The notes: generated by a model from the letters alone, not told the origin. DNA of 64,000 bases from a bacterium (GCA_021792615.1 JAJYUJ010000008.1:11900-75899); one strand, 5' to 3'; positions 4,662-63,750 are shown, counted from the stretch's first letter. Made by a program: numbers and translations.

Positions 4662-6179
4662 ATGGTTAAATTTTTAAGCATTGCTTTATCGATCCTGTCT
4701 TTGATAGTAGTTGTCCAGGGGTGTTCTGAAAACAAGTCATCGCCGCAGAGCGGTAACCCCTATCTTTCAAACAGTGCATGGCCTATTATTCACCACTCCA
4801 GTTCGCAGACCGCAAGCTCACCGTTCGCAGGTCCCGGAAGCCAGGCAGGCAGACCGCCCCGTGCTGATTTCATAACCTCCACGGTCCAGGGGACCGGTCC
4901 TGTTGTTTTTGACTCAAAAGGCAATGTACTTTTTGAGAAGGTCGCGATTTTGAACCAGGTACATATCTTCAGCAAGCTGGATCCGGTTACGCTGAATACT
5001 ATTACATCCTATACCGTCAATGTTTCAGCCTCGGATCCCTTGAACGGACTGTATTCTTTTGTTGATTACCATGACTGCTGGTGGAACGCGTACAATCAAA
5101 CCTTCTTAAGGTTGTGCTTTAACGGGAATTCCATAGTCCCGGATATGTCGATTAATCTTGCGGCGCTTTATCCCACGCAGATTACATCTCAGGATTCCAT
5201 CGTCAGTATGAATCCGCTGTATGCAAGCCCTGGTATGATGGACATAGCCTTTGTTACCGAAGGCCTTCAACCCGTACATCAGGGCGGGTATTTTACACAG
5301 ACCATTACCGGTGCGAAGGTCGGGGTAATGCGTATCAACAGCGACCGCAGTATAAGCCTCTTTATGCAGGATTTCCCCAATGAGGACATAACCAATAGCT
5401 TTGCCGTTTCTCCGGATGGCGGTATCTATGTCATAACGGACAAACATGCAGTAAAGCTCATGCTTCAGCAAACGTGCTCGTGCGGTGCGGATGCATTGAA
5501 GATAGTTTGGGAAGTACCCTATGAGACGGGCTTGCCCATCCAGCAGATAGCCTGTCCCAATGCTACCCCGGATTGGGAGTGCAGAATTAATGTTATGTTG
5601 AATGGCGGCAGATTGAGTCCGGATGGCTCCGGCACAACGCCGACCCTCATGGATCACGGCAAGTACATGGTATTTGCTGATGGAGAACTTCCTCTGAAGC
5701 TGGTCGCCTTACGAACTACGGATGGCAGCGCTCTTCCCATCGATAAGCCTGTTCCGTTTACCGAAACAACGGCACAGACAGAAAATATCTGCGCGTCTTT
5801 CGGCAATACGTTTGTCATAGAGAACAACTACAGCCCCGGGGTTGCCGCCTATGAAATCACGGGTCAACCCGGCCAGGAAACGGTCAGACAGCTTTGGGTC
5901 AATTACTCTGTCTTTGCTCCGAATGCTGTCCCTCTTATTGCGGGCGGCACGGACACGGTTTATGTGTACGAGATGCAGGGACCGAGTTTCTACCCGCTTA
6001 CGACAACAACGCAGCAATGGTTTGTAACGGCACTCGATCTCGGAACAGGTGCCGTTGTATGGAGAAAACCCATTGGCAGCAATATTCCGTATAACAGCAT
6101 TTACGCGCCGCTTTCCCTCGATAACAAGCAACAAATTTATATAGGTCTTTTCGGCGGCTTGCTGAGGATCCGTCAGTAG
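4662..6179 (+). CDS. Secreted lipoprotein of unknown function
   Basis: 505 aa. N-terminal signal with a lipobox-like VVVQGC. Ser/Thr/Asn-rich, with no recognisable catalytic motif. Confidence 0.6.
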   Translation: MVKFLSIALSILSLIVVVQGCSENKSSPQSGNPYLSNSAWPIIHHSSSQTASSPFAGPGSQAGRPPRADFITSTVQGTGPVVFDSKGNVLFEKVAILNQVHIFSKLDPVTLNTITSYTVNVSASDPLNGLYSFVDYHDCWWNAYNQTFLRLCFNGNSIVPDMSINLAALYPTQITSQDSIVSMNPLYASPGMMDIAFVTEGLQPVHQGGYFTQTITGAKVGVMRINSDRSISLFMQDFPNEDITNSFAVSPDGGIYVITDKHAVKLMLQQTCSCGADALKIVWEVPYETGLPIQQIACPNATPDWECRINVMLNGGRLSPDGSGTTPTLMDHGKYMVFADGELPLKLVALRTTDGSALPIDKPVPFTETTAQTENICASFGNTFVIENNYSPGVAAYEITGQPGQETVRQLWVNYSVFAPNAVPLIAGGTDTVYVYEMQGPSFYPLTTTTQQWFVTALDLGTGAVVWRKPIGSNIPYNSIYAPLSLDNKQQIYIGLFGGLLRIRQ

Positions 6180-12573: not shown

Positions 12574-12650
12574 TGGTGTGCCTGGCGCGATTCGAACGCG
12601 CGACCCACAGCTTAGAAGGCTGTTGCTCTATCCACCTGAGCTACAGGCAC
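12574..12650 (-). tRNA. tRNA-Arg (anticodon TCT)
   Basis: The reverse complement reads GTGCCTGTAGCTCAGGTGGATAGAGCAACAGCCTTCTAAGCTGTGGGTCGCGCGTTCGAATCGCGCCAGGCACCA. This folds as a cloverleaf with a T-loop GTTCGAATC, anticodon loop CTTCTAA, and an encoded CCA. Confidence 0.85.
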
Positions 12651-12681: not shown

Positions 12682-12758
12682 TCGGGGCGAGCCGATTTGA
12701 ACGGCCGACCTCTTGCTCCCAAGGCAAGCGCTCTGGACCAGGCTGAGCTACGCCCCGC
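12682..12758 (-). tRNA. tRNA-Pro (anticodon TGG)
   Basis: The reverse complement reads GCGGGGCGTAGCTCAGCCTGGTCCAGAGCGCTTGCCTTGGGAGCAAGAGGTCGGCCGTTCAAATCGGCTCGCCCCGA. Cloverleaf with anticodon loop CTTGGGA. CCA is not encoded. Confidence 0.8.
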
Positions 12759-13040
12759 TAATAATAATACCTACCAACTTTCCTGGTTAATCTCAACCTT
12801 GCCTTGTCCGCCCGCCCGCTCACCTTCTCGCGGGCGTGAACAAACCTGAGGCTCTTTCTTCATCACCTCGTTCACCCCAAGGCAAGCGCTCTGGACCAGG
12901 CTGAGCTACGCCCCGCTAATACATTACCTATCAAATTCTCTCAGCCTTCACCATAATTGCCTTGTCCGCCCGCCTGCTCACCTTCTCGCAGGCGTGAACA
13001 ATCGTGAGGCTCTTTCTTCATCGCCTCGTTTATTGCATAT
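12716..13040. repeat. Tandem duplication, two units of about 160 bp. Each unit comprises the 5' half of tRNA-Pro plus about 120 bp of its upstream flank and carries an internal CGCCCGC...GCGGGCG hairpin.
   Basis: Unit 1 (about 12716-12875) and unit 2 (about 12876-13040) are around 85-90% identical by eye: ccaaggcaagcgctctggaccaggctgagctacgccccgctaata...ccttgccttgtccgcccgcc(c/t)gctcaccttctcgc(g/a)ggcgtgaacaa... Confidence 0.8.
12876..12917 (-). pseudogene. Truncated tRNA-Pro fragment (5' half through the anticodon loop), produced by the tandem duplication
   Basis: Over about 41 nt it is identical to 12718-12758 of the intact tRNA-Pro. It lacks the T-arm and acceptor 3' strand. Confidence 0.75.
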
Positions 13041-13196
13041 TAATAGTAACAACAATGACCGAGAAATGCAATACTGAAACCATACAATGATTATTTTCCT
13101 TTATTCAAGTACAACTCTACGTGCTATCCTGTACGGAGCTAGTTTAAGTACCGTTCTAAATAAATTATGTATTAAATTACATATAAGGAGAGTGCT

Positions 13197-13403
13197 ATGG
13201 CAAAGACAACCGTTGATATAGATGAGAATCTTTTAAAGGAAGCACGCAAAATCACCCATCTGAAAACGAAGAAGGCTATCATTGAAAGAGGCATCCGAGA
13301 ACTTCTGAGGATAAATTCTCAGGAGCTCTTGAAGCAGGAACTCGGATCTTTCGATATCGAACTTTCACTTGATGAACTAAACAAGAAAAGGAGGCAAATA
13401 TGA
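13197..13403 (+). CDS. VapB-type (DUF2191/PF09957-like) type II antitoxin-like protein, with no cognate toxin gene adjacent
   Basis: 68 aa, MAKTTVDIDENLLKEARKITHLKTKKAIIERGIRELLR, matching the TTxDIDxxLLxEA...TKKxxIExxLREL signature of VapB antitoxins. Confidence 0.55.
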   Translation: MAKTTVDIDENLLKEARKITHLKTKKAIIERGIRELLRINSQELLKQELGSFDIELSLDELNKKRRQI

Positions 13404-13632
13404 CCAGAAAAGGAACAACAGGCGTATGCCCAATCTGCGGGGGCACAAAAAAAGAGGTAAAACTACCTTTACAGCAGACATGGGTTCTGGCATCGTAGTA
13501 GTAAGGGACGTCCCTGCCACGATATGTTCCCAGTGCGGAGCAGATTGGATTAGAGACCCTGTTGCTGCAAAACTGGAGAAGATCGTTGAAGATACCCGAG
13601 AAAACATACTATTGTTGAAGCTACAACGCTGA
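13400..13632 (+). pseudogene. YgiT-type zinc-finger (MqsA N-domain-like) antitoxin-like gene, interrupted by a -1 frameshift in an A7 homopolymer
   Basis: Frame A reads MTRKGTTGVCPICGGTKKEV... then stops. Frame B continues GKTTFTADMGSGIVVVRDVPATICSQCGADWIRDPVAAKLEKIVEDTRENILL. Adding one A to acaaaaaaagagg restores a canonical 77-aa YgiT-type protein (CPxCGG...TTFTxDxGxGVVVxxxVPAxxCxQCGExW). Confidence 0.7.
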
Positions 13633-13840
13633 CCGTATAATGGCCGTTACAGAATTCGGAAAAAATCGAATGTTAAGTTCCCCGAGAATTCCCATAAGAA
13701 ATGTTATGTCAACTATTAATTTCGAATAAGTTAGAACTCTCCCAGAACCTCGTGATTGCCCCGTAATCACCCCATCACATCCGTGGCGCTGCCTTGCCCG
13801 TAGGTTATCCCTTATCAGATCCCATTATTTATTATGTTTC

Positions 13841-14473
13841 TTAATAATGATATAGAAGTGTAATATTTACTGACGTGGTACTTCCATCGCTACTAATCGG
13901 TAAGCTTACTGTTGTATTTGTTCCCCCTCCGGATACATTAATTTTATCATAAGCAAAGTAATGGTAGATTACTTCTGCGCCAAGAGACAGATAACTGGTT
14001 AAGTATCCTTCATACCCAATACCAAGATCGATTCCTATATTTGGATTTGCTGTATATGTCATTTTAGGATTTACATTAGATGTTTGCAATACGCGATTAA
14101 CATAGCCTCCACCGATTAAAAAGTATATGTTGTTTGTCTTATTCAAAGGAATTATAGGTTTTACATTCAAATACGGCAATTCCATAAAGCTCCACGAACC
14201 ATTTAAATTTTGAGGGGAGCTGAATCTGCCAATACCTTGATCATACCCTAACTCTAATGCCAGATAATCAATAAACTGATACCCACCTCTTATTGTCCAG
14301 CCAGGAGCCAGCGAATAACCATCTTCATTCGGGCCAGTTGGATTATCTATCCCAGCACCAACACCAACATATAGCCCATTATGATCGCCAGCAAATACAG
14401 AAGGTGTCATACAAAAACTTACTGTTAATAACGTAGCAACCATAATACTCGTAAACTGAACTATATTTTTCAT
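13841..14473 (-). CDS. Outer-membrane beta-barrel protein (OmpA-like transmembrane domain/porin family)
   Basis: 210 aa with a signal peptide, alternating amphipathic beta-strand pattern, Gly/Tyr-rich composition and a C-terminal aromatic residue (...LLYHY). Low GC. Confidence 0.7.
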   Translation of the reverse strand: MKNIVQFTSIMVATLLTVSFCMTPSVFAGDHNGLYVGVGAGIDNPTGPNEDGYSLAPGWTIRGGYQFIDYLALELGYDQGIGRFSSPQNLNGSWSFMELPYLNVKPIIPLNKTNNIYFLIGGGYVNRVLQTSNVNPKMTYTANPNIGIDLGIGYEGYLTSYLSLGAEVIYHYFAYDKINVSGGGTNTTVSLPISSDGSTTSVNITLLYHY

Positions 14474-14513
14474 AGAGTCTGCCTCCTTTTCTTGGTGCTC
14501 TTATTGATATTCT

Positions 14514-16091
14514 TTAATATATTGCATAAAGGTAACCATCTGTTGAGGCAATATAGATCGTTCCATCTGCTCCGATTGCAGGGGAAGACGAGTAAATTGC
14601 TCCACCTGTTTGATATGTCCACCTTGGAAAACCTGTCGATTTAAATGCAAAGAGCTTGCCATCAGTGGAGCCTACATAGATTGTTCCATCTGCACCGATT
14701 GCTGGAGAAGATTGTATGGGTACAAATGTTACATATATCCATTTTAAAGTTCCATCGGGATTGATTGCATAAAAAAGTCCGCTTGCTGTACCAAAATATA
14801 TTGTTCCATCAGGACCTATGGCAGGGGCAGTTAAAGTAGTTTCTGTAATATCGCTGTCATAATAGTTCCATTGCTCGTCTCCATTTGAATTAATTGATAA
14901 AAGAGAACTGTATTCTATTCCGCCACCATATACGCTGAAGTAAGTACAACCACTTGTTCCTATTGCTGGAGGAGATGCAAGCCCGAACAATTCACCACGT
15001 GGAGCACTGCGCCATTCAGGTGTTCCATCGGGATCAGTGGCACTTTCTATTCCAGCTAGTTGTGTACCGTAAAGTATTCCATTAGTGTCTATTGCTGGTG
15101 CAGTATATGGATATAAAGGAATATCAAAGGAATTCAAATACATTTTAAGAGTACCATTAGAATTTATTGCAAGCAGATCTCCAGATAGATCTCGAGATAT
15201 TACTACATATATAGTTCCATCGGTTCCTATAGTAGGAGAAGAAGGAATAGCGGGGTATACACCAGTCAATGAAGGATGAATCAGTGAATACAAAGCTCCA
15301 ATTTGATAAGTCCATTTCAGAGTGCCATCTTGATTCAGGGCATACAGCATTTCTCCACCGTTGTTAGTGGAATAACCACTTACATAGATGGTTCCATCTT
15401 CTCCTATTGCTGCAACTGGAAAGATAAAATTTTCGGCGGCATAACCGTTTTGAAGTCCTGTACCTCTAATGTTAGATGAAATGTTCCATCCTGTTGAATA
15501 TGTCCATTTTAACCCACCTGTTGAATTCAATGCATACAATATCCCGTTATCGGCACAGATGATGTAGATTGTTCCACTTGCATCTATGGTAGGAGAACCG
15601 CATGCAATACCAATCTGATGCTTCCATCTGAGTGTACCCGTTGTTGAGCTTGTATCAACGCCGCTCAATCCGGTTTGTTCTAAATTCTGCATGTACTTGG
15701 GCCAGGGAGCATTCGTCTGAAGTTTAATGGGTCCTGTAGAAGTTTGTGTATCCAACTTTGTGGTTTCTTTTGTAAATGGAGATGATGAACCAGCATAGGT
15801 AACTGTAACTGTTGCATTCCCTGCATCTCCATACGTATATGGCGATGAGATTGCCACGGTCATATTATGACTATCCGTAGCTATGCTAAACCCATTTGTT
15901 GCGCCCCAAGTGTAATAAAGATTTGCTCCTTGAGGTGCATCTACGTTCACTGATAAAAGGATAATCCCTCCGGGTGCTGGCACTCCAGATTCTGTTATGT
16001 ATCGGATAATCAGTGGTTGATGTTGTGTGTTTTGCTTACCACAATTTATGAGGGCAAGAATACCCACGATGCATATAAAAACTTTTGGCAT
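14514..16091 (-). CDS. Secreted PQQ-like beta-propeller repeat protein (BamB-like fold) with an N-terminal Ig-like region
   Basis: 525 aa with a signal peptide and repeated blades ending in SPAIGxDGTIYVGSxDGxLYA. Low GC. Confidence 0.75.
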   Translation of the reverse strand: MPKVFICIVGILALINCGKQNTQHQPLIIRYITESGVPAPGGIILLSVNVDAPQGANLYYTWGATNGFSIATDSHNMTVAISSPYTYGDAGNATVTVTYAGSSSPFTKETTKLDTQTSTGPIKLQTNAPWPKYMQNLEQTGLSGVDTSSTTGTLRWKHQIGIACGSPTIDASGTIYIICADNGILYALNSTGGLKWTYSTGWNISSNIRGTGLQNGYAAENFIFPVAAIGEDGTIYVSGYSTNNGGEMLYALNQDGTLKWTYQIGALYSLIHPSLTGVYPAIPSSPTIGTDGTIYVVISRDLSGDLLAINSNGTLKMYLNSFDIPLYPYTAPAIDTNGILYGTQLAGIESATDPDGTPEWRSAPRGELFGLASPPAIGTSGCTYFSVYGGGIEYSSLLSINSNGDEQWNYYDSDITETTLTAPAIGPDGTIYFGTASGLFYAINPDGTLKWIYVTFVPIQSSPAIGADGTIYVGSTDGKLFAFKSTGFPRWTYQTGGAIYSSSPAIGADGTIYIASTDGYLYAIY

Positions 16092-16113
16092 ATTTTTTTC
16101 TTCTCAAGAATGC

Positions 16114-18999
16114 TTAGTATATACCACTCGGGAAAATTAGATTTATGCATGAGTTGTTTTGGTTATTTTCTATGCTTGATAAGAATATTTCGTCAAGCTT
16201 AGAAGGAGCATACTTAAACTCTCCATAATGATAAAACGCAGGACCTCCTTTACTAGGTGAATGTGGGACAAGAATAGGCTGGGAAATGGTGCCCTTGTTG
16301 TCCGTAGGACATAATGATTGTGGAAGAGTTTGAGATGCCATATAACCATATTCTTTTAGTGGCCCTATGACTGCATTGCTTATCTTTATTGCATTGGCTT
16401 TCATATTACTTGCAATTAGTGGATTCAATATAGCTTGTGAAAAGAATCCTTCGCATGCGCTATATAAATCAGTAGGGAGAGTGGGATCTACCACTATTGC
16501 TGCGGAACCTACTGCTGCTGATATTGCGGTGCATAGACCGTCTATTTGTTCTTGAGGAATCTTAACGGCTTGAACGGCAGCGTCTACAGAATCTGTAGAA
16601 AAATCTAATATATTACTTGTTGTGATATACGGCTCTAATTTAAGCGTCAGCCATGGCACATCAATCTCGGGAGTCATATTCCAAACTGGTCCATCAGACC
16701 ATCCAGCTTTGCATTGGGGATATCCTTGGCTCCAATCAACGGAGTAACACGGATTTTTCCACCAAGTTTTAATATACATGCTGACATTTATTTGTCTTGC
16801 TATTAAAGATATAGTTATACTTCCGTTATTGTTTGTAGTAATAATGGGGGAGCTGGAATTATCTAATGTGGCGGAGTCGATGATTATATTACCCTTTATC
16901 TGTACTCCAGCCTTAAAAGTATTAGTGGGATCTGGTTTTGCATTATTAGCATTACCTATTGTTGGGATAGTAGTATAAGCTGCCTTCTCCAGTTCTGTAA
17001 ATGGAACAAACCCACCATTGTAATAAGTTTGGCAACCACTATTGATGGTCGTTCCATTGAAGGTATAAACAACCTTCGGATCCCCCTTGGGACAGAGATA
17101 ATAACCCGGAACGAATGTCGATGGCCTGCATGACGGATCCACTTTTATTGAACATTCATAATCAAGTGGATCAATTAAATCAGGTGCACAATTTGGATTT
17201 ACCCATGTAGCTGTTGTAAATTCTTGATTACAATAATAAGTCTGGTTATCTGTGGTAGTTTGACCATGGGTATAATCATAATAAAGCTGAAGTATAACAG
17301 CTATGGCGTTATTCAGATTATTATCATTGATTTTTTGTTCCGCTTGATATAGAGGATTACTTGGGGACAACTCATAGGTGCCATTATCTTCCGTTATATC
17401 CTTAACCATTGAAGGGCATATCTGTCCTCCAATACTGTAATTGCCATTATTACACAATGGTAACAGAGTACTTAGAAGAGTGTTCAATAAGGACATGGGA
17501 CCCATATTTCCTATAAGAAGTTGGCATGGTTGATCCATGATACAGTTTTTATCATTGCTGCAATCGGAATAATTTTCGCAAAGGAATGGTACTACCTTAT
17601 TTGTTGGCTGGTAGTTGACTGTAATGAAATCGGTTCCTCTGTTTGTTCCCGCTGTGTTATAACCCGTTGCCACCAGTGTTTGTATACCAGGTTTTGTAAA
17701 TGGCACTACGCCACTCGTCGAGAAATTTATACCAGATGTCCCTGTGCTTGTAGTAGCACTGGTTGCAAGTATATTATTAGAAGGAGAAGTAATTGTTACA
17801 CTTGCAATATCAGAAGTAGCATCACCATATAAGCTAAACGGTGCGGTTATCGTGGGTATGTTCACATTGTCGCTTTGAGGATTGTCTATACGAATAGGCG
17901 ATGTGTGAAATGTCGTTACCTGGTCAGCTATACTATAATTGCTGCTCTCCAATGGGTTGGCAGATAAATCCTGATTACCTGCGAGCCCAGTAGGCATATT
18001 ACATTTTACCGTGGGATAAGTAAGCTTATACACTGTATCAATATCAAACCCATTTGCAGACGCTATTGTATAGCTGAATGGTTCATATGCTGGCCATTGA
18101 TTGTCCACGGTTAAGAATGTTGAAAATGTAGTATTCCAATTACCAAGCATAACATTACTATATCCTGCGTATTGACTACCGTCGACAGGAGAAAAATTCC
18201 CGCTGCTATCTTTCTTTTCAAATGCAAATTCTACAGGAGAATATAAGGTGCGTGAGAAATTCGTTGTAAACGGATAGTGTGGTGGGACGTTCATATAATC
18301 TGCATCTGGTAATGGTGCTAGTCCCATAGAACCTCCATTACCAGCTAACCAGTTCAAGAACAAGAAGAAATCGACTATACCTCCGGCAACAAGTACTTGA
18401 GCTCCAGACACAGCTCCAAACTCATTACCGTATTCGTATGATTTTACAGTCACTGGTGCACCATACTGCTGAACCGCTTCGAAAGTGTAGATGGTATTTA
18501 CCAGGGCATTGGGATTGTTTTCCAAGGAAATACCAGATTGGGTTTGTAGACCTCCATTATAGTTTACAAAAAAGTCAGCTTGTTCATACCATGCAATCTG
18601 CTGAAGATTTATCCATAAAGTAAGTTCCGTTCCTGTCGAATCAAATGAGCTATGCGTAAAATTAAGCCCAGTGACTATCCCTGCGCTGGGAAGTATTTCG
18701 ATTCCATTCATAACGAATGTTCCGGGTGCATATGTAGCCGTATTTATGGGGGAAATAAAATCTATTATTAACGCAAGTTGATTTGTAGGCTGAATCAATC
18801 TACCGCATTGTGGATATAGATGAACATCTTTTATATAATTCGCCATAAAGGCGGTATTCGGGGGTAAAGTCGTTGGAGTACAAGAGCCACCTCCACTATT
18901 AAAACTACAACCACCTCCAAATGTATTATTACACTGGACAGACGACATAATGAGTATGAACAAAACACCTATTGATAAGAGTAGATATGATCCCTTCAT
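16114..18999 (-). CDS. Giant secreted Asn/Thr/Ser/Gly/Cys-rich protein of unknown function; putative surface or adhesin-like protein
   Basis: 961 aa with an N-terminal signal (MKGSYLLLSIGVLFILIMSSVQC). Many NxT/S sequons, paired Cys clusters (CENYSDCSNDKNC, CNQEFTTATWVNPNC) and no recognisable catalytic domain. Low GC; operonic with the neighbouring secreted proteins. Confidence 0.7.
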   Translation of the reverse strand: MKGSYLLLSIGVLFILIMSSVQCNNTFGGGCSFNSGGGSCTPTTLPPNTAFMANYIKDVHLYPQCGRLIQPTNQLALIIDFISPINTATYAPGTFVMNGIEILPSAGIVTGLNFTHSSFDSTGTELTLWINLQQIAWYEQADFFVNYNGGLQTQSGISLENNPNALVNTIYTFEAVQQYGAPVTVKSYEYGNEFGAVSGAQVLVAGGIVDFFLFLNWLAGNGGSMGLAPLPDADYMNVPPHYPFTTNFSRTLYSPVEFAFEKKDSSGNFSPVDGSQYAGYSNVMLGNWNTTFSTFLTVDNQWPAYEPFSYTIASANGFDIDTVYKLTYPTVKCNMPTGLAGNQDLSANPLESSNYSIADQVTTFHTSPIRIDNPQSDNVNIPTITAPFSLYGDATSDIASVTITSPSNNILATSATTSTGTSGINFSTSGVVPFTKPGIQTLVATGYNTAGTNRGTDFITVNYQPTNKVVPFLCENYSDCSNDKNCIMDQPCQLLIGNMGPMSLLNTLLSTLLPLCNNGNYSIGGQICPSMVKDITEDNGTYELSPSNPLYQAEQKINDNNLNNAIAVILQLYYDYTHGQTTTDNQTYYCNQEFTTATWVNPNCAPDLIDPLDYECSIKVDPSCRPSTFVPGYYLCPKGDPKVVYTFNGTTINSGCQTYYNGGFVPFTELEKAAYTTIPTIGNANNAKPDPTNTFKAGVQIKGNIIIDSATLDNSSSPIITTNNNGSITISLIARQINVSMYIKTWWKNPCYSVDWSQGYPQCKAGWSDGPVWNMTPEIDVPWLTLKLEPYITTSNILDFSTDSVDAAVQAVKIPQEQIDGLCTAISAAVGSAAIVVDPTLPTDLYSACEGFFSQAILNPLIASNMKANAIKISNAVIGPLKEYGYMASQTLPQSLCPTDNKGTISQPILVPHSPSKGGPAFYHYGEFKYAPSKLDEIFLSSIENNQNNSCINLIFPSGIY

Positions 19000-19010
19000 A
19001 AGTACCTCCC

Positions 19011-19886
19011 TTAGTATGTGTTTGGTATCAATTGCTTTATGTAGCCCATTGCGTTGTTAAGCATCTCATTCGTTATGTAAGATGGTGGATCCTGGTTGGA
19101 TAATGCAATCTTTGCCTTTGTCTGGGGCGTTGATTGCGTAAAGGATTCTATCTGAGAAAGCGATCTCGCAGATGCGAGCGCTGTCAGTGAATTATTGTTG
19201 GGATTGTTAATAATTGATTGTAGAACAGGTTCCAATGCTTTATTGTACGTGTTCCCGCTTGATTCTGCACAGGCAGCTTGGAGAAGATCGGGCTGACTTG
19301 AATCAAGACAATATTCAAATGTCTTTATAATCTTATGAAGATAATGACTGCTGCCCTCTTCATTATTATCATCTCCATCATTACATCTTTCGGAAGAATT
19401 ATCACGGTTATTTAAAACAATATAATGAGCTAATTGGCCAAGCGTAATCGCTGCCTCTATCCTCAAACTGAGTTCAAACTTGTAAGCGCTCGGGGTAGCT
19501 GAAGCGTTACACGCATTTGAGAACTTATTAAAAATGCTCGAATCATCATCTATCTTCTGCGTTACAATGGTACTTGTGCCTTTTATCGTCTCGTAAAGCT
19601 TGCCTTCATATGCAACATCCAACGCCTTCGAAACGACCTGCTGTGCATGGGTTTGTGGATGCTCTAAGATTTCTTCTGCCGCTCCATAACGCTCATGCTT
19701 TTTATCACTGTTCAATCGGTTAAGTAAATCTTGTTCTCTGTTGCTAAACCAGGAAATAAACGATTGGCACTGAGGTGAAATGGTGGTATTGTTTTGTCCT
19801 GATCGATCGTCGTCGCTGAATGCTGAATTTAATACAAATCCTAGGAACAAGGATATTACACTTAGAAACAAAAGAATTCTTTTCAT
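19011..19886 (-). CDS. Secreted/lipoprotein-like protein with HEAT/PBS-lyase-like repeats, unknown function
   Basis: 291 aa with a signal peptide. Helical repeats such as EAAITLGQLA. It is the first gene of the four-gene low-GC operon. Confidence 0.55.
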   Translation of the reverse strand: MKRILLFLSVISLFLGFVLNSAFSDDDRSGQNNTTISPQCQSFISWFSNREQDLLNRLNSDKKHERYGAAEEILEHPQTHAQQVVSKALDVAYEGKLYETIKGTSTIVTQKIDDDSSIFNKFSNACNASATPSAYKFELSLRIEAAITLGQLAHYIVLNNRDNSSERCNDGDDNNEEGSSHYLHKIIKTFEYCLDSSQPDLLQAACAESSGNTYNKALEPVLQSIINNPNNNSLTALASARSLSQIESFTQSTPQTKAKIALSNQDPPSYITNEMLNNAMGYIKQLIPNTY

Positions 19887-19904
19887 ACAAAGCCCTCCTT
19901 CTCA

Positions 19905-19938
19905 ACCGTCTATATTTGAAACCCTCTATCGGGTTTCA
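19905..19938. promoter_or_regulatory. Perfect 14-bp inverted repeat (TATATTTGAAACCC-tctatc-GGGTTTCAAATATA), 15-50 nt upstream of the island operon start codon; candidate operator or 5'UTR hairpin
   Basis: Read directly from the sequence. It sits between the putative promoter region and the RBS of the 19886 gene. Confidence 0.5.
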
Positions 19939-20322
19939 AATATACTAAAACAAATCTGCTTTTAAAGGTGAACTAAGTTGTTTCTACATTCGTGATTAAT
20001 CTTAGATAAATCAGAAATACTTATAGTTGTCAAGAGTCTAGTTTTCGATCAAAGCTGTAGTCGATAATGTAAAGTAGGTGCACGAAGATCCTCGAAGCCC
20101 AGCGGCTTCTCTACACCGTTCAAAAAACGTCCCTTTTTGGAACGCTTATTTTAAATCTCGGTTTCAGAGGGAAGCGTTTACCCTGTTTTGATACCCCTTT
20201 TTTGGACACCAAAAAGAGCTTATCAAGCATGCGGTCATCCGCGATAATAAACGAATGTATCTTGTCCAGGGGTTGTTGTAGAGAACGTACGAATAAGACA
20301 GAAGAAACCGATCGTTTATTGC

Positions 20323-20817
20323 TCAGGGCTGTTTCTTTGATTTGCCTGAAAACAGCAGGTCGATGGCGAGCAGGATTGCTCCGACGGTGATCGCACTGTC
20401 CGCTACGTTGAACGCAGGCCAGTGCGTGTTTTTTACAAACACATCTATAAAATCCACAACGTAACCGAGCCGTATCCGATCGATAACATTTCCAACCGCA
20501 CCGCCCATGATCATGGATAATGCGATCATGGACAATCCGGTCATGTCCTTCGAAAACAGATATACAAAAAACAGTACAATAAAAACGGCTACCGACAGCA
20601 CCGTAAGCATCGTTGTCCGGAATATACACTGGCCGTTGTTGAACATACCGAAAGCAACCCCCCGGTTATAGACACTGACGAGATCAAGGAAACCCGGGAC
20701 GATAACAACCTGCCGGGTAAGGTAATGGACCACAAGGTATTTTGACACCTGATCCAGCAGCACGATAACAGCGGCTATCAGAACGAGGGTCGTCAGCCTC
20801 TGCTTTAAGGGTATCAT
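20323..20817 (-). CDS. lspA: Lipoprotein signal peptidase II
   Basis: MIPLKQRLTTLVLIAAVIVLLDQVSKYLVV...NRGVAFGMF...FNVADSAI. The start overlaps the ileS stop. The tracked ORF 20323..20907 is N-terminally over-extended. Confidence 0.9.
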   Translation of the reverse strand: MIPLKQRLTTLVLIAAVIVLLDQVSKYLVVHYLTRQVVIVPGFLDLVSVYNRGVAFGMFNNGQCIFRTTMLTVLSVAVFIVLFFVYLFSKDMTGLSMIALSMIMGGAVGNVIDRIRLGYVVDFIDVFVKNTHWPAFNVADSAITVGAILLAIDLLFSGKSKKQP

Positions 20818-25576: not shown

Positions 25577-26054
25577 AGTACTGTTTTATTCAGTTTAATC
25601 TTTTACCGCTTGTCACGGCAACGATTATAAAACCTATTCCTATTCTGTGCATATTCATGTACAAGTGTCAATCTGACAGAGAGTATCCACTCTCAAAAAC
25701 CTTCCCGGTTTGCCGCTCAATGTTTGCTATCATCAAAAGCTTGACAAGCAGGAATTATAGCATAATATGAAGTTGTGAAAAAGACTAAATTACTTTTATA
25801 TTTCAATAAGTTAGTCAATAACAACACTTTGTGGTCAGTTTTTTACACTATACCATATATTGTTTATATTTAATGGTTTTTTTTCGCATGAAAAGCAGGG
25901 GAAAAGCACAGAAAATGAATGGTAACTATTTGTATTATATATACTTTACAGGTTTTCCACAGGTGTTGAAAAACTTGTGTGTTTCTCATGCTGGTTTGCT
26001 TTTGATCTCAACAAGTTACACTACAAGTTATATGATAATTATAAGGGGGCCTCT
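25577..26054. other. AT-rich mnmE-dnaA intergenic region; candidate oriC / dnaA promoter region
   Basis: About 480 bp at around 30% GC. DnaA-box-like 9-mers: TTTTCCACA near 25953 and GTATCCACT near 25683. There are few perfect boxes. Confidence 0.4.
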
Positions 26055-27371
26055 ATGGAAGCGTGGGAAAAAATAAAAAAAGAATTGATTAATATTTATA
26101 AGGATACCAACGACGATCCGTGGATAACTATCTTAAATCCTTTAAGTTTTAATGATAACTCCCTTATACTTGGGGTACCTGATGATTTTTCATTAGACTG
26201 GATAAAAACTCACTATCACTCTGATATATTGAAATTGGCAAGGTCTATAATCGGCGACGGAACAAATGTCGAGTTGGTAATCGACCATAGAGAAGAAATC
26301 GATGTTGAAAGTCACGCTTTTTTACCTAATATAGGGTTTACCCATCTCAATAATTCAAAAGGCCTTTTAAAAAACTATACCTTTGATAATTATGTGGTAG
26401 GCGAATCAAATAAATTTGCAAGCGCTGCCGCGGTTGCCGTTTCTCAAAACCCGGGCAGGTCATATAATCCTCTTTTTATATACGGCGGTGTCGGACTCGG
26501 CAAAACACACGTTATCAATGCGATCGGCAACCTCATCGACGATGAACATAAAGGGTTGAATATCATTTATATGACCACGGAAAATTTCGTTAACGATCTT
26601 GTGAATCATCTGAGAGACAGGAAAATGGATATTTTCAGGGAGGTCTATAGAAATTGCGATGTGCTGCTTATCGATGATATTCAGTTTATTTCGAATAAGG
26701 AGCGATCCCAGGAAGAAATGTTTCATACATTCAATACGCTGTATGAAGAAAAGAAACAGATAGTATTTACGTCCGATAAACTCCCCAAAGAAATTCCCAA
26801 TATAGAGGAGCGGCTGAGAAGCAGGTTCGAGATGGGTCTTATCGCAGACATACAGGTACCCGACATAGAAACGAAGGTAGCTATTATAAAAAAGAAGGCA
26901 GAGAGTGACCGTATCGAGATCGATGATGAAATAGCTTTTTTCCTGGCATACAACACCCAATCGAACATACGGGAACTCGAAGGCTATCTTACCCGGTTGT
27001 CCGCGTATGCAATTTTGACAAAGACAAAGCTGAATATCCACGTTGCAAAAGAAGTTTTATCCGGTCTCATTAGAAAAAAGGATAAATGGCTTACCATAGA
27101 TGATATCCAGAAAGCAGTAGCCATGCATTTCAAAATAAAAGTTTCAGACCTTCTTTCTACGAAGAGAATGAAGTTTATAGCCCTCCCCAGGCAGGTGGCA
27201 ATGTTTTTGTCCCGCACGCTCACCAATGCTTCTTATCCTGAAATAGGACTCCAATTTGGGAACAAGGACCATTCAACCGTCATTCACTCCGTCAATAAAA
27301 TAACAGAGATGATAAAGGACAATCAAAGTATAAAAGATGCTGTTGAAAAAATCAAAAAAGGTTTAGGATAA
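26055..27371 (+). CDS. dnaA: Chromosomal replication initiator protein DnaA
   Basis: Walker A GGVGLGKTH, sensor LIDDIQF, and domain IV (RQVAMFLSRTLTNASYPEIGLQFGNKDHSTVIHS). Start at MEAWEK with the RBS AAGGGGG. Strikingly low GC, about 33-36%. Confidence 0.95.
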   Translation: MEAWEKIKKELINIYKDTNDDPWITILNPLSFNDNSLILGVPDDFSLDWIKTHYHSDILKLARSIIGDGTNVELVIDHREEIDVESHAFLPNIGFTHLNNSKGLLKNYTFDNYVVGESNKFASAAAVAVSQNPGRSYNPLFIYGGVGLGKTHVINAIGNLIDDEHKGLNIIYMTTENFVNDLVNHLRDRKMDIFREVYRNCDVLLIDDIQFISNKERSQEEMFHTFNTLYEEKKQIVFTSDKLPKEIPNIEERLRSRFEMGLIADIQVPDIETKVAIIKKKAESDRIEIDDEIAFFLAYNTQSNIRELEGYLTRLSAYAILTKTKLNIHVAKEVLSGLIRKKDKWLTIDDIQKAVAMHFKIKVSDLLSTKRMKFIALPRQVAMFLSRTLTNASYPEIGLQFGNKDHSTVIHSVNKITEMIKDNQSIKDAVEKIKKGLG

Positions 27372-27556
27372 GAGAGTGATAAAGTTGTTGAAAAAGTACA
27401 ATTTATTTTTTATAGTGTTTATCAACAGAATAAGAACAATAGATTAAACAGGAATTATGAATTGTTTATATAAAAAATTCAATAACATAAGATAATAATT
27501 ATTTTATAAACATGCTTTACTACTACTAAAAATATAAAGACTATTAGGAGAGAATA
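27372..27556. other. Extremely AT-rich dnaA-dnaN spacer; alternative oriC / DNA-unwinding-element candidate
   Basis: About 20% GC. Contains TTATCAACA, which is 8/9 of the DnaA box TTATCCACA, near 27418. Confidence 0.35.
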
Positions 27557-28651
27557 ATGGAATTTACAATAGATAAAAGAATTTTGCTGATAGAAGTAAG
27601 CAAGGTTATCGGTGCAACGGAGCGAAAAGCTACAATGCCTATTTTATCAAATATATTATTAAAAGCGGAGAAGGGGACTCTTAAGATAACGGGAACGGAT
27701 TTGGAAGTTACGATAATAAGCATCATCAACTGTAATATTGTATCGGAAGGACAGGTATCCATTCCTGCAAAGAAATTTTATGATTATATCAGAGAATTGC
27801 CGGACAGGGACATCAACATAAAAAAAGAAGACGGTTTTATAGAGATCAGTACGGAAAAGATTTCCGGCAGATTAAAGGTGTTACAGGCAGAGGATTTTCC
27901 ACATATAGACGAATACAAGGGAAGTTATACGAAGGTATCGTATGAACAATTATTAAAGATGATCGATAAAACAATCTATGCAACGTCAATCGATGAAGTA
28001 AAATATAGCTTGAATGGTGTTTATATAGAAAAGGCCCTCGATAGTCTGCGTTGTGTTGCGACGGACAGTCACCGTCTTGCTCTGTACGAGGATGAAAGTC
28101 TAAAATCTATAGAGGGTCTTACAAAAGGTATCATCGTTCCAAGAAAAGGTCTGTATGAAATAAAGAAAATCGGCACGGAAAATGAAATAAATATCGCGGT
28201 AGAAAAAAATAAAAATTTAATTGTGAATATAGGGAATACGATTATACAAATACGGTTACTGGATTATGATTTTCCGGATTATAAATCGGTTTTACCTTCC
28301 GAAACAACAATAAATATAAAAATAAAAAAAGATATTTTGGTGTCCGCGGTCAAAAGGGCACAATCGATATATCAGGAAAAAATATCGCGGGTTGTATTGG
28401 ACATACAGAAAGACACAATCATCGTCGAGAGCAACGAACCCGATATCGGTGAAGTAAAGGAAGAAATAGAGATCGACTATAAAGGTAATCCGCTGAAAAT
28501 AGGGTTTAATGGCAAATACCTGCTCGATTGTTTGAACTCTATGGACGGCGAATTCGTATCCATGGGTTTCAATAACGAACAAAGCGCAAGTACGTTTTTT
28601 GCGGACGACAATAAAAAGCATATGAACCTCATCATGCCGATGAGGATGTAA
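27557..28651 (+). CDS. dnaN: DNA polymerase III beta sliding clamp
   Basis: 364 aa with a three-domain clamp architecture, starting MEFTIDKRILL, and a C-terminal MPMRM. Low GC, like dnaA. Confidence 0.93.
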   Translation: MEFTIDKRILLIEVSKVIGATERKATMPILSNILLKAEKGTLKITGTDLEVTIISIINCNIVSEGQVSIPAKKFYDYIRELPDRDINIKKEDGFIEISTEKISGRLKVLQAEDFPHIDEYKGSYTKVSYEQLLKMIDKTIYATSIDEVKYSLNGVYIEKALDSLRCVATDSHRLALYEDESLKSIEGLTKGIIVPRKGLYEIKKIGTENEINIAVEKNKNLIVNIGNTIIQIRLLDYDFPDYKSVLPSETTINIKIKKDILVSAVKRAQSIYQEKISRVVLDIQKDTIIVESNEPDIGEVKEEIEIDYKGNPLKIGFNGKYLLDCLNSMDGEFVSMGFNNEQSASTFFADDNKKHMNLIMPMRM

Positions 28652-63198: not shown

Positions 63199-63750
63199 AT
63201 GAAACCACAATTTATTCCTTATAATAAAGAATTAATTAAAAATGCTAAGGAAAACAGGAAAAATCCAACTGTAGCAGAGAAAAAACTGTGGCGTGATGTA
63301 CTTAGTAACAAGCAATTTACCTTGCATAAATTTACAAGACAAAAGCCTTTGGATAATTTCATAGTTGACTTTTACTGTTCCGAGCTTCTGTTAGTTATTG
63401 AAGTTGATGGCGACACGCATGCCAATCAGGAAGAATACGACAAACAACGCAGCAGAATTTTATTAGAAAAATACAATATCCAAGTCATAAGATACTACAA
63501 CAGTGAAGTATTAAAAAATATTGAAGGCATACGCACAGATTTACTTGAGAAAACAAAACAAAGAAAACAACAAATCAAACCAACCCCCCAGCCCCCCTTG
63601 TCAGGGGGGATAAGAAGGCTATCCTCAGACAAAGAAAAAAGCCTGGTTAAGGAGACTCCTCCGGGACAAGGGGCATCCCTTTCATCTCCCCCTGATAAGG
63701 GGGCATCTCCCGTATCTCCCCCTGATAAGGGGGATAAAGGGGGTTTATGA
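63199..63750 (+). CDS. DUF559 endonuclease-domain protein (Vsr-like PD-(D/E)xK fold). The C-terminal roughly 55 codons read through the downstream hairpin array.
   Basis: Core motifs TxxExxLWxxL...FxxQxxxxxxxVDFxxxxxxLxIExDGxxH...D..R...L...G. About 33% GC. The true protein probably ends near 63590. Confidence 0.75.
   Translation: MKPQFIPYNKELIKNAKENRKNPTVAEKKLWRDVLSNKQFTLHKFTRQKPLDNFIVDFYCSELLLVIEVDGDTHANQEEYDKQRSRILLEKYNIQVIRYYNSEVLKNIEGIRTDLLEKTKQRKQQIKPTPQPPLSGGIRRLSSDKEKSLVKETPPGQGASLSSPPDKGASPVSPPDKGDKGGL
63590..63750. repeat. Second hairpin array (CCCCCCTTGTCAGGGGGG, then two 30-bp units, then ATAAAGGGGGTTT), a direct repeat of the array upstream of the DUF559 gene
   Basis: 63718-63748 is identical to 63165-63195. 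Confidence 0.8.

Follow-up and report, generated by a model that had tools for sequence, protein, structure and literature searches.

We analysed a 64,000-nucleotide stretch of DNA from an uncultured bacterium (GCA_021792615.1, JAJYUJ010000008.1:11900-75899; hereafter, the window), in which an AT-rich accessory segment of 7.39 kb (12916-20302) lies between lspA, the lipoprotein signal peptidase gene, and a tRNA-Pro gene. This segment is a genomic islet in a hypervariable chromosomal slot and is horizontally exchanged. Its four genes, which we designate A, B, C, and D, form an operon-like unit, and all four products carry export signals. The explanation that we favour, with a probability of about 0.55, is that the slot, which two conserved non-coding elements (E1 and E2) delimit, holds a mobile module of surface or envelope lipoproteins, and that this module is probably adhesin-like. 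A surface or adhesion function is plausible from the sequence features described below. The metagenome-assembled genomes (MAGs) of the lineage are labelled 'bacterium' or 'Deltaproteobacteria bacterium' at NCBI, and their habitat is presumably mine drainage, an unchecked guess from the MAG names. The loci used for comparison are given by L numbers.

A chromosomal slot with different cargo in related genomes

The closest genome, L104, showed 92% nucleotide identity to the window over mgsA-ileS-lspA and 96% over the tRNA-mechanosensitive (MS) channel-glycosyltransferase-mnmG region. The homology ended at window position 20303, 20 nt past the lspA stop, and resumed at 12915, the 5' end of a partial tRNA-Pro copy, from which point the tRNAs and core genes (12915-7089) were matched at 96% identity. 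In place of the 7.39 kb, L104 contained only approximately 130 nt of unrelated DNA; the lspA stop and the partial tRNA-Pro copy were separated there by approximately 0.15 kb. A first-pass annotation of the window, made before any comparison, had placed the segment at 13041-20120, in close agreement with this result; the extent defined by L104 is 12916-20302.

The last core gene before the slot is lspA (20323-20817, minus strand), whose identical counterpart in L001 matched Peptidase_A8. Its identity in sister species was 78-90%. In five sister species, IleS was 82-92% identical to that of the window, while the IleS of the next relatives, MAGs labelled Deltaproteobacteria or Nitrospirota, was only approximately 55% identical. 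Four of the sister genomes carried other cargo in the slot. In L018 and L105, a propeller gene and a barrel gene lay on the opposite strand and were followed by ParE/Phd genes, and L105 had two additional folate- or chorismate-type genes. In L020 (8428-9612), we observed an open reading frame (ORF) for a multi-pass membrane protein of 394 amino acids with 34% GC and no Pfam match, followed by vapB and ygiT as in the window. In L022 (3408-4964), the ORF was large, encoded a secreted product with a core motif judged by eye to be transglutaminase-like, and ran off the contig. The slot of L019 was rearranged. Within the species itself, the cassette was found at the same site and in the same order in all six places shown, which represent six assemblies or samples (eight contigs carry B).

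The flank on the tRNA side showed a separate sign of exchange. Window 12837-13716 was 96% identical to L020 9895-10774, whereas the ileS-lspA region of the same pair was only 77% identical, which points to a recent exchange of this flank between species. Judging from these comparisons, cargo could be exchanged between conserved flanks, sometimes in inverted orientation, by homologous or site-specific recombination.

The base composition of the segment also differed from that of its surroundings. The GC content per kb was 38-41% over 13-20 kb and 46-50% in the flanks, and window 13717-20117 had a GC content of 39.6% compared with 48.0% for the remaining window. The GC content at third codon positions (GC3) of A, B, C, and D was 0.384, 0.311, 0.268, and 0.270, respectively, compared with 0.548 ± 0.069 for the 38 other ORFs of the window (z-scores of -2.4 to -4.1). 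The four proteins contain 27-33% N/S/T/Q, and their K+R content is 3.8-3.9% in B, C, and D and 8.2% in A. Since GC3 is independent of amino-acid composition, the low GC content is not a side effect of proteins rich in Asn, Thr, and Ser. The first-pass annotation had described the segment as GC-poor, accessory, and horizontally acquired, with ileS and lspA as neighbours. The windowed GC and GC3 values bore out the first of these points, and the absence from L104, the other cargo in four sister genomes, and the foreign composition agreed with the second and third; both neighbours were confirmed. The comparison of strains that it had proposed gave presence, absence (L104), and different cargo (L018/L105, L020, and L022) at the slot.

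The operon and its relatives

The four genes are encoded on the minus strand in the order A (19886-19011, 291 amino acids), B (18999-16114, 961 amino acids), C (16091-14514, 525 amino acids), and D (14473-13841, 210 amino acids), with gaps of 11 nt between A and B, 22 nt between B and C, and 40 nt between C and D. These ORFs were found as the first-pass annotation had described them, co-directional and closely spaced. A, B, and D each have a Shine-Dalgarno-like sequence in front of them, and that of C is weaker. A scan for terminator-like sites gave four, compared with 5.4 ± 2.3 in shuffled sequence, that is, no excess. All four products begin with a hydrophobic N-terminal signal sequence, as had been noted earlier.

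The order A-B-C with short gaps was also observed in L010/L011, L012-L015, and L017, and partial or decayed copies were present in L007 and L016. The identities to the window proteins were 54-62% for A, 43-54% for the N-terminal part of B, and 40% for C. In L010/L011, the cassette adjoins IS21, Rad52/PDDEXK/RadC, and mer genes; in L012-L015, it adjoins an IS5 remnant and is followed by genes for an NHL/fn3 lipoprotein and a lipase-like lipoprotein. D was present in none of these other A-B-C loci. The only relative of D observed, in L018/L105, was 51% identical and was paired with a C-like propeller. The operon, as these relatives indicate, is composite and consists of a mobile A-B-C cassette and an add-on D. 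Accordingly, the four-gene module that the first-pass annotation had proposed held for A-B-C, which are conserved together, and not for D, and the search for the synteny elsewhere returned the three-gene but not the four-gene set. The architecture of barrel, propeller, and giant exoprotein, on which its functional proposal had been built, is not conserved, with D being separate from the A-B-C core.

Two of these copies showed further peculiarities. In L007 (9759-12472), A was cut to 78 amino acids and B had no signal peptide, and in L017 (648-1451), A was called as two ORFs of 92 and 161 amino acids that were spanned by a single tblastn alignment. On the contigs of L007 and L017, the flank and the cassette alike had a GC content of approximately 38%, which makes lineages of such composition plausible donors.

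A distant counterpart of the cassette was found on L098 (VFSW01027843.1, 1-7369), a plasmid-like metagenomic contig with genes for a Rep_3 initiator, ParA, an RHH/PIN toxin-antitoxin pair, and a PKD/NHL lipoprotein. On this contig, the gene for a serine recombinase of 209 amino acids (Resolvase, 1.1e-37) is followed by E1, by a promoter and leader, by the gene for a HEAT_2-positive secreted protein distantly related to A, and by the start of a B-like lipoprotein gene (a weak match, E = 2e-4). The leader region of L098 recurred, inverted, 5' of the propeller-barrel pair of L018.

The promoter and leader of the window operon (19887-20040, minus strand) comprise a promoter-like TTGACA-17-TTTATC and a 5' leader of approximately 130 nt. 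The leader contains a hairpin, TATATTTGAAACCC-N6-GGGTTTCAAATATA, at 19911-19944 and the ribosome-binding site GAAGGAGGG. This conserved palindrome, TTTGAAACCC-N6-GGGTTTCAAA (19911-19944), directly precedes the ribosome-binding site for gene A and may act as an operator or as RNA structure in the leader. The leader had a folding z-score of -3.0, and the promoter and leader DNA was conserved in L010 and L012 in spite of a protein identity of only approximately 55%. In L098, a leader of the same layout has AAAACCC-N6-GGGGTTTT (5861-5882), in which a G-C to A-T change occurs on both sides, and the hairpins of L010 and L012 are imperfect, with two mismatches each. The search of the window against Rfam gave no match besides two tRNAs.

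These observations bear on the strongest of the alternatives to the favoured explanation, namely that the four genes are not one system and that A-B-C and C-D (or D) are independent, co-transcribed cargo of a patchwork islet. The distribution of D, the occurrence of only a C-like propeller and a D-like barrel in L018/L105, and the unrelated cargo in the slot of other species speak for it. The gaps of 11-40 nt on one strand, the single conserved promoter and leader, and the lack of a terminator excess argue in the other direction, and we consider this alternative unlikely, if the least so of those discussed here. Since a composite operon is already part of the explanation that we favour, the two overlap partly.

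The exported proteins

B gave no match at E <= 1 in Pfam and none at E <= 0.1 in PHROGs or PADLOC, and its single match in NCBIfam, to a restriction-enzyme model, was at chance level (E = 0.18; 11 bits, cut-off 100). The PDB sequence search with the B family profile also gave no match. No autotransporter barrel, SLH domain, or toxin/Rhs/CDI domain was found in B in these family and PDB searches. The first-pass annotation had recognised no catalytic or secretion-system motif in the products, and the searches of Pfam, NCBIfam, PHROGs, PADLOC, and PDB sequences likewise returned none. Two word-indexed searches among 5.8 billion proteins, one by sequence and one by profile, gave five clusters of B homologues, and an exhaustive hidden Markov model search of 1.84 billion representatives gave seven hits, all belonging to the small family of B or its fragments. 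No match to B was obtained by tblastn against plasmid records. By these searches, B is an orphan family confined to a few MAGs and metagenomes.

The signal peptide of B ends in 'SSVQC', and the Cys of S-[IV]-Q-C was invariant in the alignment of full-length homologues. The earlier description of B as a giant exoprotein was right as to the signal peptide and the size, whereas the conserved lipobox-like Cys indicates that B is probably anchored to a lipid and not released as an exoprotein. The conserved part, residues 1-465, shows 43-54% identity among homologues and includes the motifs VPPHYPFTTNF and IRIDNPQSDNVNIPTITAPF. The variable half, residues 466-961, contains 18 of the 23 Cys and aligned with only one homologue, P0001. 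In its place, P0004 and P0005 have Ig/TIG/Glucodextran_B-like domains, and P0002 and P0003 have other sequence. As judged by the alignment and the BLAST coverage, B consists of a conserved stalk of approximately 465 residues and a variable end.

The AlphaFold2 model of B, built from six sequences, had a predicted local distance difference test score (pLDDT) of 38.9 overall. Only two segments reached a pLDDT of 60-78, both of them beta-sandwiches (approximately 75-175 and 385-465). In the model, these immunoglobulin (Ig)-like sandwiches flank a conserved core of approximately 200 residues. Foldseek with this low-confidence model returned generic Ig-domain arrays of adhesins and S-layer proteins, which we did not use as evidence of family. 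According to the first-pass annotation, confident structural homology of the giant protein to a known family would make the operon a known system. No such homology was obtained for B, with the limit that the models of A and B had a pLDDT of approximately 39; structure prediction of the two proteins failed because of the shallow alignments.

LigA and LigB of Leptospira are surface lipoprotein adhesins with Ig-like domains. B resembles them in its size and beta-rich make-up with Ig-like sandwiches, in the lipobox-type Cys of its N-terminal signal peptide, and in its conserved proximal and variable distal parts. However, B had no match to Big_2 or another Ig family, its core and Cys-rich half are without known relatives, its lipobox is atypical, and it always occurs with a HEAT-like protein and a propeller lipoprotein. 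With the inverse autotransporter adhesins intimin and invasin, B shares Ig-like stalk domains and the general plan of a conserved anchor and stalk followed by an exchangeable distal part, which in B would be the binding end, but it has no beta-barrel domain and no LysM or C-type lectin domain; the barrel D is a separate protein of 210 amino acids, and its match to intimin in NCBIfam was weak (E ~0.02-0.03; 12 bits, cut-off at least 1400). As the defining domains are lacking, B is a member of neither the Ig-lipoprotein nor the intimin/invasin families.

The signal peptide of A ends in ...NSAFS|DDD, and the first Cys of the protein is residue 40. A is thus a predicted secreted protein of the signal-peptidase-I type and not the lipoprotein that it had first been taken for. 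It has five conserved Cys. HEAT_2 (PF13646) matched the window protein with 18.4 bits, below the gathering cut-off of 27.7, and matched the A-like protein of L098 with 35.2 bits, above it; the latter protein and the A profile were aligned by hhalign with E = 2.8e-5. The AlphaFold2 model of A, from an alignment of three sequences, was all-helical with a pLDDT of 38.8, and its Foldseek matches were generic alpha-solenoids, all with E > 0.5, which were also not used as evidence of family. Three clusters of homologues were found among the 5.8 billion proteins, and on this count A is an orphan family in a handful of MAGs and metagenomes.

C matched PQQ_2 of Pfam with E = 1.4e-17 (64.6 bits, cut-off 27.6), in agreement with its earlier description as a PQQ propeller. 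It is not a member of the PQQ-dehydrogenase family TIGR03075 (17 bits, cut-off 480), nor of the BamB family (TIGR03300, 50.6 bits with a cut-off of 285.2; PRK11138, 36.6 bits with a cut-off of 423), and its matches in PHROGs and PADLOC were to generic propellers only. The N-terminus is PKD-like, since residues 28-123 of the PKD/NHL protein of L098 matched window 16061-15798 with 40% identity. Blade repeats of 33 nt are visible in the DNA of the gene. In L010, L012, and L017, homologues of 369-440 amino acids follow B. A lipobox-like Cys occurs in C at 'LINC', and homologues have I-N-C, I-S-C, N-G-C, or D-G-C, with the Cys being kept in all full-length ones. B and C are likely lipoproteins, given their conserved Cys after a hydrophobic segment, and by its family match C is a propeller scaffold. 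C and BamB (YfgL) are both lipoprotein-like with a PQQ_2-type propeller, but C has the extra PKD-like domain and is accessory, being missing in L104.

D matched OMP_b-brl (PF13505) with 48.1 bits (cut-off 28.7, E = 2e-12) and OmpA_membrane with 27.6 bits (cut-off 21), and its C-terminal residue is Y. By these matches, D is a small outer-membrane beta-barrel, as the first-pass annotation had proposed. It shares the two barrel families and the aromatic end with the small 8-stranded barrels of OmpX, OmpW, and the OmpA N-terminus, and it lacks the periplasmic OmpA_C domain. A porin-cytochrome electron conduit was considered as a separate candidate and rejected, there being no CxxCH haem motif in any cassette protein.

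If the cassette encoded a secreted or surface-bound system that captured or degraded a substrate, the core of B or the propeller of C would be an unrecognised hydrolase, lyase, or polymer-binding module. Genes for a propeller of the NHL/Vgb-lyase type and for an alpha/beta hydrolase resembling lipases extend the cassette of L012, C weakly matched the propellers of lambda-carrageenase and ACSF4, P0004 matched Glucodextran_B and TIG, and the core of B contains the invariant His241 and several invariant Ser and Asp. On the other hand, A, B, and C gave no above-threshold match to any catalytic family, the scaffolds hit by the carbohydrate-related matches, Ig-like or propeller, are non-catalytic, and invariance among six sequences at 40-50% identity says little. 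We consider such a role improbable.

Slightly less probable still is that B forms an abundant coat, lipid-anchored to the outer membrane, a lattice of the S-layer or matrix type, for which A, C, and D would be assembly or anchoring factors. Among the top Foldseek matches to the B model are SbsC, Sap, and HPI, which are S-layer proteins, the B family is an orphan and fast-evolving, and the operon has a long, conserved, structured 5' leader. Long structured 5' leaders recall highly expressed surface-protein genes. However, the model is of low confidence and these hits are generic Ig-like sandwiches with a query-normalised TM-score <= 0.12; no SLH or other S-layer anchoring domain was found with Pfam; and a GC3 of 0.27-0.31 is opposite to the host-adapted codon use expected of a very abundant protein. 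Moreover, since the cassette is missing from L104, it cannot be an essential coat.

Boundary elements and possible mode of exchange

E1 (20103-20210, minus strand) starts with GGTGTCCAAAAAAGGGG, has an imperfect second copy approximately 72 nt further on, and occurs once in the window. It lies 3' of lspA in L018, L020, L022, L105, and the window, and upstream of A-B-C, ahead of the cassette promoter, in L010 and L012. All of the E1 homologies begin at the same base. In L098, E1 overlaps the last 38 nt of the resolvase gene, and this contig was the only one found in the metagenome scan with the E1 pattern. The position of E1 on a resolvase gene, among plasmid genes, ties the cassette family to plasmid and resolvase DNA. 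The E1 pattern gave no match in viral contigs, and RNAalifold detected no covariation in E1. The A-tract motifs of E1 may recall the hix/gix half-sites of DNA invertases; the sequence is of low complexity and this likeness was not used as evidence. A minus-strand ORF of 169 amino acids (20120-20629) overlaps lspA and E1 and is almost certainly spurious, its C-terminus (…VSKKGVSKQGK…) reading through E1, whose sequence also makes up the tail of the L098 resolvase ORF.

E2 (13690-13811, minus strand) follows the last cargo gene and also occurs once in the window. It was 81% identical to L012 17284-17371 and to L013, and it aligned with L018 8581-8801; in L020, its distal part alone aligned. In every case, a gene pair of toxin-antitoxin type comes after E2, lies on the opposite strand, and belongs to a family that differs by lineage. 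In the window, these are a vapB-like gene (13197-13403, plus strand; VapB_antitoxin, 6.8e-12) and a YgiT-type zinc-finger gene (13400-13632, plus strand; TIGR03831, 1.7e-8), and in L018/L105 and L013, other toxin-antitoxin pairs take their position. The vapB/ygiT pair lies in the stretch that is missing from L104, and its proteins were 98% identical in L020. No PIN or MqsR ORF was found in 13041-13840, so that the two are orphan antitoxin genes, as had been noted. The ATG of ygiT, at 13400, overlaps the stop of vapB as ATGA. The first motif, CPICGG, is in this frame, and the remainder of the gene, with CSQCG, is in the -1 frame. The frames switch in an A7 run (A_AAA_AAA, 13447-13453) that is also present in three further assemblies of the species (L001, L003, and L005) and in the sister species L020; the gene may be a pseudogene, or it may be read by slippage during transcription or by programmed -1 frameshifting.

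Beyond the antitoxin genes lie tRNA-Arg(TCT) (12574-12650, minus strand) and tRNA-Pro(TGG) (12682-12757, minus strand), both of which were confirmed with ARAGORN and Rfam. A tandem duplication of a 158-bp unit (12718-13033, minus strand), reported earlier, was also recovered. Each copy contains the 5' 40 nt of tRNA-Pro and its upstream region, with the partial copy at 12876-13033; the copies agree fully (100%) over a 46-nt core and elsewhere show 93% identity or have diverged. L104 and L105 also have the partial tRNA-Pro copy, which indicates that it predates the present cargo, and the tandem unit may have been left by a former integration at the tRNA.

The first-pass annotation had taken the location next to the tRNAs as an argument for horizontal acquisition, and the segment resembles tRNA-linked islands in lying beside tRNAs, in the partial tRNA copy, and in the atypical composition. 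The comparison gives no support to the tRNA as the insertion target: the partial tRNA-Pro also occurs in L104 and is not a direct repeat flanking the island. The partial copy is a 5' half in tandem with the full gene and without a partner at the other end; the two tRNA-Pro 5' halves lie 158 bp apart on the same side, and there is no attL/attR. Furthermore, the islet, unlike such islands, contains no integrase gene. No recombinase was found among the ORFs or Pfam matches in 12916-20302, and the L098 resolvase gave no tblastn match in the window, in line with the earlier statement. No inverted or direct repeats were found bounding the island in the window or the inverted cargo in L018.

Hotspots hold varying cargo at a fixed position, and integrons are platforms of an integrase and attC cassettes. 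The slot shares with them a fixed position between core genes, differing cargo, conserved flanks, toxin-antitoxin genes, and atypical composition. It differs from integrons in that it has no integron integrase, attC, or tyrosine integrase, that E1 and E2 are new, and that the one link to a recombinase is the serine recombinase gene abutting E1 on L098. The families of A and B and the flank elements are new, while a genomic islet in a recombination hotspot is of a familiar kind.

Under the favoured explanation of a mobile surface or envelope module, the four products would be exported by Sec, and the outer membrane would receive B and C after their lipidation by LspA and its partners. Anchoring or assembly would be the task of the N-terminal, conserved part of B, with A and C as chaperone or platform, and the variable disulfide- or Ig-rich C-terminal part would be the exposed ligand-binding or antigenic end that diversifies between lineages. 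D may be a membrane anchor or independent cargo. The cargo would be swapped between genomes and plasmids by recombination via E1 and E2, possibly seeded by a plasmid-borne serine recombinase.

Several points weigh against this explanation. Expression, lipidation, location at the outer membrane or surface, and binding are all predictions from sequence. The lipoboxes of B and C are atypical in comparison with [LVI][ASTVI][GAS]C, having Q or N at -1, and with a pLDDT of approximately 39, the fold matches of A and B carry little weight. In the core of B (approximately 200 residues), a single His and several Ser and Asp are invariant, which makes an enzymatic role possible, and C and D might function without A and B. 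L104 may represent either the ancestral empty site or a deletion. In addition, the window contains no recombinase and no bounding inverted or direct repeat, so that exchange via E1 and E2 is deduced from the comparison of genomes.

A bolder reading goes further in the same direction. In it, A-B-C would be an unrecognised, self-contained system that assembles or displays a large lipoprotein on the outer membrane, with A as periplasmic chaperone, C for docking or assembly, and the core of B, approximately 200 residues around VPPHYPFTTNF, as a new fold, and E1/E2 would delimit a cassette-exchange platform, an analogue of the integron, on which small plasmid-borne serine recombinases act in trans and by which envelope-protein operons move between plasmids and the chromosomal slot. 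We hold this reading to be about as doubtful as the coat.

It is very improbable that B is a polymorphic toxin or competition factor with a variable C-terminal toxin, or a derivative of a phage receptor-binding protein. B has the conserved N-terminus and variable C-terminus of such proteins, and mobile contexts with toxin-antitoxin genes lie nearby. However, searches with Pfam, NCBIfam, PHROGs, and PADLOC detected no family of toxins, immunity proteins, Rhs/CDI systems, or phage structural proteins; the gene after B encodes a conserved propeller and not a variable immunity protein; the variable ends of P0004 and P0005 are Ig/TIG domains; and neither the viral contigs (for E1) nor the plasmid records (for B) gave a match. 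A native core locus, with an odd composition due to secreted proteins rich in Asn, Thr, and Ser, would fit the N/S/T/Q content and the presence of the cassette in six of six places of the species, but it is contradicted by the empty site of L104, by the replacement in sister species, by GC3 values 2.4-4.1 standard deviations under the window mean, and by the cassettes elsewhere beside IS and plasmid genes, and is the only alternative that is clearly refuted.

If the favoured explanation, a mobile surface or envelope module, is true, the islet is a natural example of uncultured bacteria that remodel their cell surface by swapping operons for exported proteins at one slot. A and B, which always travel with a BamB-like lipoprotein, would then be candidate parts of a new module for adhesion or for the assembly of surface proteins. 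The locus yields precise boundaries, an empty-site reference, and flank sequences with which cassettes can be fished from metagenomes. Islets of accessory surface proteins are common, and the finding bears on no long-standing question.

Low GC values were also observed elsewhere in the window. dnaA and dnaN (25977-28651) had a GC content of 36-39% and a GC3 of 0.40-0.43, compared with the window mean of 0.55, which is unusual for core replication genes. Two more low-GC ORFs at the window ends, 482-991 (0.41 GC) and 63199-63750 (0.39 GC), may be accessory genes.

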